2,257 nucleotides of DNA, taken from Escherichia coli (lineage in GTDB: Bacteria > Pseudomonadota > Gammaproteobacteria > Enterobacterales > Enterobacteriaceae). Where the stretch lies: the NCBI RefSeq assembly GCF_003334335.1, contig NZ_QOWQ01000091.1; one strand, given 5' to 3'. This document shows, piece by piece, positions 1-2,257 of this stretch. The notes under the pieces were generated by a model. The model worked only from the letters and a program-made list of their open reading frames with translations, searched no databases and was not told where the DNA came from. Numbering within the stretch: the stretch's first letter is position 1; each line of letters begins with the position of its first letter. Made by a program: the position numbers and the translations under genes.

Positions 1-468
1 CGTACCATTCAGAACTGGCAGGAACAGGGAATGCCCGTTCTGCGAGGCGGTGGCAAGGGTAATGAGGTGCTTTATGACTCTGCCGCCGTCATAAAATGGT
101 ATGCCGAAAGGGATGCTGAAATTGAGAACGAAAAGCTGCGCCGGGAGGTTGAAGAACTGCGGCAGGCCAGCGAGGCAGATCTCCAGCCAGGGACTATTGA
201 GTACGAACGCCATCGACTTACGCGTGCGCAGGCCGACGCACAGGAACTGAAGAATGCCAGAGACTCCGCTGAAGTGGTGGAAACCGCATTCTGTACTTTC
301 GTGTTGTCGCGGATCGCAGGTGAAATTGCCAGTATTCTCGACGGGATCCCCCTGTCGGTGCAGCGGCGTTTTCCGGAACTGGAAAACCGACATGTTGATT
401 TCCTGAAACGGGATATCATCAAAGCCATGAACAAAGCAGCCGCGCTGGATGAACTGATACCGTTATGA
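1..468 (+). CDS. nu1: Terminase small subunit Nu1 (lambda-like), 5' end outside window, 3' end truncated at a deletion junction
   Basis: Frame 1 is open from position 1 (cgt acc att cag aac tgg = RTIQNW), which precedes the ORF-track start at 31 and shows the gene enters from upstream. The translation ...IRTIQNWQEQGMPVLRGGGKGNEVLYDSAAVIKWYAERDAEIENEKLRREVEELRQASEADLQPGTIEYERHRLTRAQADAQELKNARDSAEVVETAFCTFVLSRIAGEIASILDGIPLSVQRRFPELENRHVDFLKRDIIKAMNKAAALDELIP matches lambda gpNu1 as I recall it, from about residue 17 to about residue 150. The last codons are ccg tta tga (P L stop, 460-468), whereas lambda Nu1 continues ...PGLLSEYIEQSG, so roughly 30 C-terminal residues are missing. Identity is from memory, not a search. 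Confidence 0.85.
   Translation, partial: RTIQNWQEQGMPVLRGGGKGNEVLYDSAAVIKWYAERDAEIENEKLRREVEELRQASEADLQPGTIEYERHRLTRAQADAQELKNARDSAEVVETAFCTFVLSRIAGEIASILDGIPLSVQRRFPELENRHVDFLKRDIIKAMNKAAALDELIPL
461..464. other. Deletion/recombination junction fusing nu1 (upstream) to an internal site of lom (downstream)
   Basis: Nu1-homologous sequence ends at ...gaactgatacc(g) at about 462. From about 463 the sequence ttatgagtttacggatacgctggggctggtgacg reads in a different frame (458 onward) as YRYEFTDTLGLVTSF, which is internal Lom sequence. The exact breakpoint is ambiguous by 1-2 nt (the cg at 461-462 could belong to either parent). Confidence 0.7.
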
Positions 469-895
469 GTTTACGGATACGCTGGGGCTGGTGACGTCAT
501 TCAGCTATGCAGGAGACAAGAATCGCCAGCTGACCCATTACAGCGATACCCGCTGGCATGAAGATTCCGTTCGTAACCGCTGGTTCAGCGTAATGGCGGG
601 GCCGTCTGTGCGCGTGAATGAATGGTTCAGCGCGTATGCGATGGCGGGTGTGGCTTACAGCCGTGTGTCGACTTTCTCCGGGGATTATCTCCGCGTAACT
701 GACAACAAGGGGAAAACGCACGACGTGCTGACCGGAAGTGATGACGGTCGCCACAGCAACACGTCTCTGGCGTGGGGAGCTGGCGTGCAGTTTAACCCGA
801 CCGAATCCGTGGCCATTGATATTGCTTATGAAGGCTCCGGCAGTGGCGACTGGCGCACTGACGGTTTCATCGTGGGTGTCGGTTATAAGTTCTGA
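463..895 (+). pseudogene. lom: 5'-truncated lom fragment (Ail/Lom-family outer-membrane beta-barrel protein) lacking signal peptide and native start; the ORF track reports it as 491..895 with a GTG start
   Basis: The frame opens after a TGA at 455-457 and reads YRYEFTDTLGLVTSFSYAGDKNRQLTHYSDTRWHEDSVRNRWFSVMAGPSVRVNEWFSAYAMAGVAYSRVSTFSGDYLRVTDNKGKTHDVLTGSDDGRHSNTSLAWGAGVQFNPTESVAIDIAYEGSGSGDWRTDGFIVGVGYKF, then stop TGA at 893-895. This matches the C-terminal ~150 residues of lambda Lom (about 206 aa in my recollection) with a single apparent difference (H where I recall R in QLT[R/H]YSDT). The N-terminal ~55 residues, including the signal peptide, are absent. The C-terminal aromatic residue (..GYKF) is typical of outer-membrane beta-barrels. 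The only in-frame start candidate is GTG at 491, with a weak GGGG 3 nt upstream. Confidence 0.85.
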
Positions 896-921
896 TTAGC
901 CAGGTAACACAGTGTTATGAC

Positions 922-948
922 AGCCCGCCGGTTCAGGCGGGCTTTTTT
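922..948 (+). terminator. Rho-independent (intrinsic) terminator downstream of lom
   Basis: Perfect 8-bp GC-rich inverted repeat, agcccgcc (922-929) and ggcgggct (936-943), with a 6-nt loop ggttca (930-935), followed immediately by a T-run (943-948, tttttt). It lies 27 nt after the lom stop codon. The opposite strand has no U-tract after the stem, so it is unidirectional for + strand transcripts. Confidence 0.75.
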
Positions 949-950
949 GT

Positions 951-955
951 GGGGT
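951..955 (+). promoter_or_regulatory. Putative Shine-Dalgarno sequence for stf
   Basis: ggggt located 4 nt upstream of the ATG at 960; a partial match to the GGAGGT consensus. Confidence 0.4.
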
Positions 956-959
956 GAAT

Positions 960-2257
960 ATGGCAGTAAAGATTTCAGGTGTACTGAAAGACGGCACAGG
1001 AAAACCGGTACAGAACTGCACAATCCAGCTGAAAGCAAAACGTAACAGCACCGCGGTGGTGGTGAACACGCTGGCCTCAGAAAATCCGGATGAAGCCGGG
1101 CGTTACAGCATGGACGTTGAGTACGGTCAGTACAGCGTTATTCTGTTGGTGGAAGGATTCCCGCCGTCACATGCCGGGACCATCACCGTGTATGAAGATT
1201 CCCGACCCGGTACGCTGAATGATTTTCTCGGTGCCATGACGGAGGATGATGCCCGTCCGGAGGCTCTGCGCCGTTTTGAACTGATGGTGGAAGAGGTGGC
1301 GCGTAACGCGTCCGCAGTGGCACAGAACACGGCAGCCGCGAAGAAGTCAGCCAGCGATGCCCGCACATCAGCCCGTGAGGCGGCAACCCATGCGACTGAT
1401 GCTGCAGGCTCAGCACGCGCAGCCAGCACGTCAGCCGGACAGGCCGCGTCGTCGGCTCAGTCAGCGTCTTCCAGCGCAGGAGCGGCATCAACAAAGGCCA
1501 GTGAAGCATCGAAAAGTGCTGCTGCTGCAGAGTCCTCAAAAAGCGCGGCAGCTACCAGTGCCGCTGCGGCGAAAACGTCAGAAACGAATGCGGCAGCGTC
1601 ACAACAATCAGCAGCCACTTCTGCATCCGCCGCGACCACGAAGGCGTCAGAAGCTGCCACCTCAGCCCGGGATGCGGCGGCCTCAAAAGAGGCGGCAAAA
1701 TCATCAGAAACGAGCGCAGCCTCGAGCGCCAGTAGTGCAGCCTCCTCGGCAACAGCGGCAGGAAATTCCGCGAAGGCGGCAAAAACGTCCGAGACGAACG
1801 CTAAGTCTTCTGAGACGGCAGCAGCACAGAGTGCCTCCGCAGCAGCAGACTCAAAAACAGCGGCTGCCTCATCTGCCAGCGCCGCGTCAACAAATGCCGG
1901 GCAGGCCTCAGCCAGTGCCACCGCTGCCGGAAAGTCGGCAGAAAGCGCCGCATCATCCGCTTCAACAGCCACAACGAAGGCTGGCGAAGCCACTGAACAG
2001 GCCACGGCAGCAGCGAGGTCAGCTTCCGCAGCGAAGACATCCGAAACGAACGCGAAAGCGTCGGAAACCAGCGCAGAATCCTCAAAAACGGCTGCCGCAT
2101 CGTCAGCCAGTTCGGCGGCGTCATCGGCATCATCGGCGTCTGCTTCAAAAGATGAGGCGACCAGACAGGCGTCAGCAGCGAAGGGCAGCGCCACGACGGC
2201 ATCCACGAAGGCGACAGAGGCAGCTGGCAGTGCGACGGCGGCAGCTCAGAGCAAAAG
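960..2257 (+). CDS. stf: Side tail fiber protein Stf (lambda-like), N-terminal conserved domain plus Ala/Ser/Thr-rich repeat region; 3' end beyond the window
   Basis: ATG at 960-962 opens a frame with no stop through the window end (432 complete codons), which is why the ORF track omits it. Translation begins MAVKISGVLKDGTGKPVQNCTIQLKAKRNSTAVVVNTLASENPDEAGRYSMDVEYGQYSVILLVEGFPPSHAGTITVYEDSRPGTLNDFLGAMTEDDARPEALRRFELMVEEVARNASAVAQNTAAAKKSA..., which closely matches the N-terminus of lambda Stf and related prophage side tail fibers as I recall them (the prophage tail fibre N-terminal domain). It is followed by a long low-complexity A/S/T/K/E tract with recurring K(T/S)SET(N/S)A motifs. Gene order lom then stf matches lambda. 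Confidence 0.9.
   Translation, partial: MAVKISGVLKDGTGKPVQNCTIQLKAKRNSTAVVVNTLASENPDEAGRYSMDVEYGQYSVILLVEGFPPSHAGTITVYEDSRPGTLNDFLGAMTEDDARPEALRRFELMVEEVARNASAVAQNTAAAKKSASDARTSAREAATHATDAAGSARAASTSAGQAASSAQSASSSAGAASTKASEASKSAAAAESSKSAAATSAAAAKTSETNAAASQQSAATSASAATTKASEAATSARDAAASKEAAKSSETSAASSASSAASSATAAGNSAKAAKTSETNAKSSETAAAQSASAAADSKTAAASSASAASTNAGQASASATAAGKSAESAASSASTATTKAGEATEQATAAARSASAAKTSETNAKASETSAESSKTAAASSASSAASSASSASASKDEATRQASAAKGSATTASTKATEAAGSATAAAQSK
1320..2257 (+). repeat. Degenerate in-frame coding repeats (Ala/Ser/Thr-rich tail-fiber repeat region) within stf
   Basis: The motif AAK-TSETN-A recurs at nt 1572-1589 (aaa acg tca gaa acg aat), 1782-1799 (aaa acg tcc gag acg aac) and 2034-2051 (aag aca tcc gaa acg aac), with KSSET variants at 1698-1712 and 1803-1817. 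Protein composition over this span is dominated by A, S, T, K, E. The repeats are imperfect and irregularly spaced (210 and 252 nt between the three KTSETN copies), not exact tandem copies. Confidence 0.6.

Follow-up and report, generated by a model that had tools for sequence, protein, structure and literature searches.

A probable Rho-independent terminator at the 3' end of the lambdoid lom cassette, directly upstream of stf, in an Escherichia coli prophage remnant

Introduction

The closest described systems to the element considered here are the spacers between lom, which encodes an outer-membrane protein of the Ail/Lom family, and the side tail fibre gene stf in the lambdoid phages 434 and mEp460. 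A rho-independent terminator is already annotated in both (OL657226 and JQ182728, respectively), so that the lom-stf terminator as such is already known from public phage records. The DNA analysed here is a stretch of 2257 nt from E. coli (contig NZ_QOWQ01000091.1 of assembly GCF_003334335.1), which is called the window throughout. It consists of three pieces in one orientation, namely a terminase small-subunit gene (Nu1/nohD) represented by its 3' part, a lom gene that has lost its 5' end ('lom), and the 5' part of stf. The subject of this report is the hairpin and T-run at positions 922-948, between 'lom and stf. This element is very probably an ordinary Rho-independent terminator that closes a lambdoid lom cassette, inherited together with the 3' end of lom and not produced by prophage decay.

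Extra genes known as morons carry a promoter and a terminator of their own (PMC3594210; PMC8065619). The lambdoid morons HK97 gene 15, lambda lom and bor, in the sense of Juhala et al. 2000 and Cumby et al. 2012, are extra genes located between two late genes and provided with their own terminator, and the lom cassette described below is like them in these respects. The lom gene is expressed from the repressed lambda prophage and is among the few lambda genes that are on in lysogens (PMC7067206). The antiterminator Q allows read-through of downstream terminators (PMC8065619).

Results and Discussion

The lom-stf intergenic spacer (896-959, + strand) extends over 64 nt between the TGA stop codon of the lom frame (893-895) and the ATG codon of stf (960-962), a length that an earlier note on this DNA had given correctly. 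Terminator scanning and folding locate in this spacer the hairpin AGCCCGCC-GGTTCA-GGCGGGCT (922-943, + strand), which consists of eight pairs, seven of them G-C, and a 6-nt loop, and has a folding energy of -17.6 kcal/mol when it is taken alone. The sequence TTTTTGTGGG follows directly 3' of the hairpin, and the terminator scan reports here one strong site on the + strand. The T-run (943-948, + strand), recognized in the sequence and by the scan, contains six T, the first of which is paired with A922. Seven of the eight bases of 943-950 are T, and release of the RNA is predicted at about 947-951. The terminator is located 26 nt past the lom stop codon and 12 nt ahead of the stf ATG. No T-run is found past the hairpin on the - strand, and the terminator element is therefore one-directional.

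The Shine-Dalgarno region of stf, GGGGTG (951-956, + strand), is read directly in the sequence 3 nt past the T-run. A ribosome-binding site is annotated in the phage 434 record at the equivalent of window positions 951-954, and the Shine-Dalgarno sequence is conserved as TGTGGRG in lom-containing and lom-less phages alike. On the other side of the terminator, the 3' untranslated region of lom contains a small A/U-rich hairpin of six pairs with a 3-nt loop (904-918, + strand), which is present in both the minimum free energy and the centroid folds and whose sequence is conserved across loci. The earlier note had the spacer almost entirely occupied by the terminator hairpin and T-run. This was an overstatement: they cover 27 of the 64 nt, or 42 of the 64 when the hairpin at 904-918 is added.

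A strict detector, requiring at least eight pairs, at least seven of them G-C, and a run of five T, was applied to both strands. It finds 922-948 as the sole site in the window on either strand, and a site of this quality turns up in only 4 of 3000 shuffled versions of the window that preserve its dinucleotides. Under these strict criteria chance is therefore a very poor explanation of the site, which also lies exactly in the intergenic gap. The fold of the whole spacer, taken as 67 nt, is only modestly better than the folds of shuffled sequences (z = -1.65); the folding signal comes from the local hairpin and not from the spacer as a whole. Several features of an intrinsic terminator are found at this site: a G+C-rich hairpin with a short loop, an adjacent U-rich tract, a position downstream of a gene on the same strand and an occurrence rarer than chance. 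The strong intrinsic terminator that the earlier note had placed directly upstream of stf is thereby confirmed at the level of the sequence. An Rfam search at a permissive threshold gave nothing real at the spacer and no family matching the lom 3' untranslated region. The Trp_leader match at 868-950 (21 bits against a gathering score of 41, E = 0.34) was rejected as a generic resemblance to a terminator.

The spacer is identical in phage mEp460, in E. coli EC416 and in the Rac prophage of K-12 (lomR-stfR). The spacer of phage 434 differs at T955G only, in the ribosome-binding region. Among the loci from IMG/VR and the reference set, the spacer of the window is the commonest variant (78 of 124 loci, with 31 variants in all). 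A stem of at least 7 bp together with the T-run is kept in 198 of 202 copies of the lom-stf spacer from the same sources, some contigs being counted twice. The number of distinct variable sites per nt is 1.33 in the loop, 0.56 in the stem and 0.20 in the T-run, compared with 0.94 and 0.56 in the flanking coding DNA of lom and stf, respectively. The loop is the most variable part of the element, and the stem and T-run are the least variable. Of 5426 complete E. coli genomes, 4246 (78%) contain a match to a 106-nt query spanning the spacer, with a median of 2 copies and a maximum of 13.

It is important to compare the window with phages that are viable. In phage 434 (OL657226, 19615-19642; equivalent to window 923-950) and mEp460 (JQ182728, 19055-19080; equivalent to 923-948), the hairpin, the T-run and the distance to stf are the same as in the window. 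Both phages have a complete lom, the gene J and a second terminator ahead of lom, whereas in the window a 5'-truncated lom is fused to nohD. The order in phage 434 is J, the J terminator (GGGCACCA-GAAA-TGGTGCC-TTTTTTATT), a gap of about 20 nt, the ATG codon of lom, lom itself, the terminator of the window type and TGTGGGGGGAATATG of stf. In phage lambda, the spacer between lom and orf-401 (stf) (NC_001416 19586-19649) has the same length, flanks, T-run and ribosome-binding site as the window. It differs in the loop, which is GGAACC in lambda and GGTTCA in the window, and in one G-C pair of the stem, which is replaced by G-U. The lambda RefSeq record carries no annotated terminator within the stretch 18700-21200. 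The lom gene of lambda represents a divergent allele up to a point about 85 nt ahead of its stop codon; beyond that point lambda and the window are almost the same in sequence, across the spacer and on into stf (lambda 266-886 of sequence L004 compared with window 469-895); a mosaic boundary is therefore located inside lom.

A distant search with the spacer and the start of stf found a number of phages, phage 21, PhiR63_1, 1W, Lambda_2E9 and ev207 among them, in which homology to the window starts at position 943, that is, in the T-run. Besides phage 21 and PhiR63_1, six records of this search lose homology to the window at this point. Phage 21 and PhiR63_1 have no lom. In these two phages the stop codon of J is followed by GGCGCCA-GAAA-TGGCGCC-TTTTTTATT and then by TGTGGAGTGAATATG of stf. 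The hairpin sequence of the J-stf terminator in phage 21 (OL657228 19195-19222) is unrelated to that of the window, but both terminators end equally far from the stf ribosome-binding site, which they have in common. By analogy, terminators of the phage 21 type presumably play the same insulating role as the lom terminator. The occurrence of unrelated hairpins at the same spot supports a function better than conservation within one family does. A link between the terminator and the remnant state, as implied by the earlier note, is not supported, because the same terminator is found in the viable phages 434, mEp460 and lambda, and an unrelated one in the lom-less phage 21.

Two prophages extend this comparison. 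In Gifsy-1 of Salmonella, a hypothetical gene of 80 codons (L128 1229-1471) is found at the position of lom between J and stf; the cargo is different and the docking site is the same. A hairpin homologous to the lom terminator (AGCCTGCC-TGCG-GGCGGGCT-TTTTT) follows this gene, and stf comes next. The Rac prophage of K-12 (MG1655 1428985-1429048), with its identical spacer, is also a defective prophage with a damaged lom, although the damage is different: lomR is split by IS5, while the lom of the window is deleted at its 5' end. In one IMG/VR sequence (UViG_2563366879_000003, L182 871-1500), a gene for an IS200-like transposase is located directly upstream of the stf ribosome-binding site, and a cspA-like gene is found further upstream. 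The hairpin CCTCCGGC-TAT-GCCGGAGG of this sequence was considered as a third natural variant of the terminator and was rejected, since it is the end of the inserted IS200-like element, which replaces the lom terminator.

Read from these sequences, the general layout is J, a terminator, an optional cargo gene with a terminator of its own, and the stf ribosome-binding site. Viable lambdoid phages as a rule have a predicted terminator some 10 nt ahead of stf, supplied by at least two unrelated hairpins. The lom cassette fits precisely into the interval from the T-run of the J terminator to the stf ribosome-binding site, and it restores a terminator ahead of stf. It is absent from the otherwise collinear phage 21 and PhiR63_1, where J is directly followed by stf; where present, the cassette ends in its own terminator, and in phage 434 the J terminator is kept upstream of lom. 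This pattern of presence and absence, together with the terminator, suggests that lom is a moron-like cassette. The ATG codon of lom follows the T-run of the J terminator at a distance of only about 20-30 nt (434, L001 966-1016; lambda, L004 205-265). A deviant base composition of lom was not seen; the G+C content of lom in phage 434 is 0.555, intermediate between 0.502 at the 3' end of J and 0.591 in stf.

The search for promoters found no sigma-70-like site in the whole window at the standard threshold of the scan. A relaxed scan of the + strand over 760-975, requiring at least 7 of 12 matches, also found none in the spacer and gave one weak site inside lom (797-823). This agrees with the earlier note, according to which no convincing promoter is present between the terminator and stf. 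With a terminator and no promoter before stf, the expression of stf would therefore depend on late read-through antiterminated by Q. Weak promoter-like matches were observed on the - strand at 985-957.

The gene stf is a late gene and is off in any lysogen. In the proposed mechanism, a polymerase without Q that reaches the end of lom would form the 8-bp G+C-rich hairpin in its transcript and release the RNA in the U-run at about 947-951, some 10 nt ahead of the stf ATG; the RNA end would fall before the stf Shine-Dalgarno region or inside it. Such unmodified polymerase would come from lom transcription in an intact lysogen, and from read-in through nohD-'lom in the remnant. The stf ribosome-binding site and stf-tfa would remain untranscribed and would stay off. 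During lytic growth, Q would be loaded at pR', polymerase would pass the lom terminator as well as the other terminators of the late operon, and stf-tfa would be expressed. The terminator of the window would have been inherited intact with the 3' end of lom when a microhomology-mediated deletion fused nohD to lom.

Several observations weigh against the reading of 922-948 as the functional terminator of a lom cassette. No compensatory double substitutions are found in the stem. The nine stem variants, each present in few loci, either keep the pairing as G-U (four) or break the pair (five). Variation is too small for covariation to be used as support, and the evolutionary support therefore consists of conservation and of the non-homologous replacement in phage 21. 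Conservation in the spacer overall equals that of the hairpin, so that recent horizontal spread explains part of it. No + strand promoter site with at least 9 of 12 matches was found upstream of lom in phage 434 or lambda, and the textbook picture of a moron is therefore incomplete. The E. coli Term-seq supplement (Adams 2021) contains no 3' end at the identical site of K-12 Rac and no entry for stfR or lomR; this result is uninformative, since IS5 interrupts lomR in that prophage and the gene may be silent. The literature yielded no transcript-level evidence for the terminator site, and nothing usable on lambda 3'-end maps, on quuD (the Q-like gene discussed below) or on a small RNA of the lom region.

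Among the alternatives, the one that survives best accepts the hairpin and T-run and regards them as a dead end in the remnant: Q and pR' would be missing or non-functional, and stf-tfa would be permanently silent. This is a serious possibility, although it falls rather short of an even chance. It is close to the earlier note, in which Q and the late promoter were supposed to be absent or distant, and it has to be judged from the DNA upstream of the window. This upstream context was read in EC416 and in the IMG/VR contig L126, which are two of the three sequences found to share the nohD-'lom junction of the window, PEC1009 being the third. The EC416 element is a DLP12-like remnant adjoining ybhB-bioA, and L126 is collinear with it over 14.3 kb at 99.85% identity. 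In both sequences an intact quuD, encoding a Q-like antiterminator of 127 amino acids (PHROG 79, E = 1e-52), lies on the same strand, 5.3 kb ahead of the first base of the window; in EC416 the gene occupies L003 9274-9657, and the window starts at L003 15001. The assignment of QuuD comes from PHROGs, while an NCBIfam profile search gave no match. Beyond quuD, the order in EC416 is a porin gene in the opposite orientation, a tR'-like terminator (L003 11355-11376), essD, rrrD and rzpD, then bor, ybcV and ylcI, these three in the opposite orientation, ybcW on the same strand, nohD, 'lom, the terminator, stf and tfa.

With quuD located 5.3 kb upstream in these relatives, Q is therefore neither absent nor far away, and this part of the earlier proposal is not supported. 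A consensus pR' promoter was not found between the porin gene and essD (EC416 L003 10930-11355), and this favours a dead end, as does the promoter-free DNA between the terminator and stf. At EC416 L003 5530-6098 a truncated recT abuts a truncated ren, and the early region (N, cI, cro, O, P, pR) appears to be deleted. The apparent loss of the region that would drive Q speaks for the earlier claim. About 450 nt of untranslated 'lom RNA before the terminator would, in addition, favour polarity by Rho. However, essD, rrrD, rzpD and nohD are intact along with quuD and the tR'-like terminator in EC416 and L126, and quuD, the lysis genes, stf (987 amino acids) and tfa are annotated in EC416 as complete genes, not pseudogenes, in spite of the recT'/'ren junction. 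Since viable phages carry the terminator equally, its presence alone is uninformative about silencing. The dead-end scenario may apply to K-12 Rac, where the spacer is identical but the 5 kb preceding stfR contain no annotated Q gene, in contrast to the relatives of the window, which keep quuD.

It is improbable that the hairpin is mainly an element of RNA stability or processing with little termination, which would protect the 3' end of lom mRNA or form a 5' structure on a processed stf mRNA. The hairpin is stable and is located in a 3' untranslated region, and in late read-through mRNA it would remain 7 nt upstream of the stf Shine-Dalgarno sequence. On the other hand, the T-run, perfectly placed and strongly conserved, is what marks a terminator, and a stabilizing element would not require it; the lom-less phages also carry a hairpin with a T-run at the same place. 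Moreover, a terminated RNA ends in the same hairpin, so that the two roles are compatible.

The proposal that the 3' end of lom, the spacer and the 5' end of stf are kept mainly as a homologous-recombination joint for module exchange, with an incidental hairpin, is less probable again. The abrupt change of lambda lom from divergent to nearly identical shortly before its stop codon is in line with such a joint, and so are the start of phage 21 homology at the T-run, the start of Gifsy-1 homology in the 3' arm of the hairpin, and the higher conservation of the spacer compared with the flanking coding DNA. This proposal leaves unexplained why an unrelated hairpin and T-run occupy the same position in lom-less phages and why the variation is concentrated in the loop. 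It is compatible with a terminator function and does not replace the terminator reading.

We give slightly less credit still to the idea that the lom 3' untranslated region of about 50 nt yields a small RNA of the Hfq type derived from a 3' untranslated region, termination serving to make this RNA. Its shape would be suitable: the A/U-rich hairpin at 904-918 is followed by a short single-stranded linker, the G+C-rich hairpin and a U6 tail. The region also varies less than the coding DNA on either side, and about 78% of E. coli genomes contain it, frequently as several copies. Finally, a chance inverted repeat without function, which could be suggested by the yield of a lax terminator scan (4 sites in the window against 2.6 expected) and by the modest score of the whole-spacer fold, is effectively refuted by the rarity of the strict site in shuffles, by its location in the intergenic gap on the coding strand and by its retention in nearly all of the 202 copies.

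The remainder of the window explains how this terminator came to lie downstream of a terminase gene. The 3' part of the Nu1/nohD homologue occupies 1-468 (+ strand) according to the list of open reading frames (PHROG 57, E = 7e-64, profile positions 27-177 of 199), and it is annotated as nohD in EC416. Its TGA stop codon (466-468) comes from lom-derived sequence. Identity to lambda Nu1 extends up to position 462, and identity to intact lom genes begins at 457; the two genes are therefore joined across the 6-bp microhomology ATACCG (457-462), which is common to Nu1 and lom. In lambda, the region between these two points of Nu1 and lom is filled by genes A to J, for the head and the tail. The microhomology suggests that one illegitimate deletion, covering the stretch occupied by A to J in lambda, fused nohD to lom at ATACCG. 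This junction is rare, being found in 2 of the 5426 complete E. coli genomes (EC416 and PEC1009) and in the contig L126.

The lom part (457-895, + strand) is a 5'-truncated pseudogene (PHROG 108, Lom, E = 6e-73), annotated as an incomplete pseudogene in EC416. The earlier note had labelled it lom, which is right as regards homology, but only the 3' two-thirds of the gene are present (profile positions 66-199 of 199) and they are fused to the 3' end of Nu1/nohD. The whole 5' end of lom is deleted in the window; the first 65 codons or so, where the signal peptide would lie, are missing, and there is no promoter of its own. A functional Lom protein from this copy is impossible without these N-terminal codons.

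The 5' part of stf (960-2257, + strand; PHROG 3279, E = 2e-131) consists of 432 codons and runs off the end of the window. In EC416 the full-length stf is followed by an uninterrupted, annotated tfa. The best genome matches to the window are 99.2% identical, and every difference lies inside stf. Compared with EC416, the closest genome, there are 17 substitutions, all clustered within 128 nt (1355-1482) of the Ala/Ser-rich part of stf; this cluster has the appearance of a patch acquired from a different stf allele by gene conversion or mosaic exchange. Rfam matches to isrG, a small RNA of Salmonella islands, were observed on the - strand (1544-1634, 1708-1998 and 2025-2077). They are below threshold (best 30.6 bits against a gathering score of 100) and probably reflect homology of tail-fibre DNA, with no small RNA indicated. 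An antisense open reading frame of 249 codons (1457-2206), in the same repeat-rich region of stf, is likely an artefact of composition. A search for tandem repeats in stf found none.

Conclusions

The overall interpretation of the earlier note is partly supported. The importance of the terminator at 922-948 is small beyond correct annotation. As a standard design of the lambdoid late operon, with or without lom, a terminator directly before stf gives no evidence that the fibre genes are silenced. Whether stf-tfa can still be expressed becomes a question not of the spacer but of the Q gene, 5.3 kb upstream, and of whatever still drives that gene. The locus is also a clean example of cargo docking, in which genes such as lom would be accommodated in the interval that separates the J terminator T-run from the ribosome-binding site of stf, with a replacement terminator supplied by each cassette.

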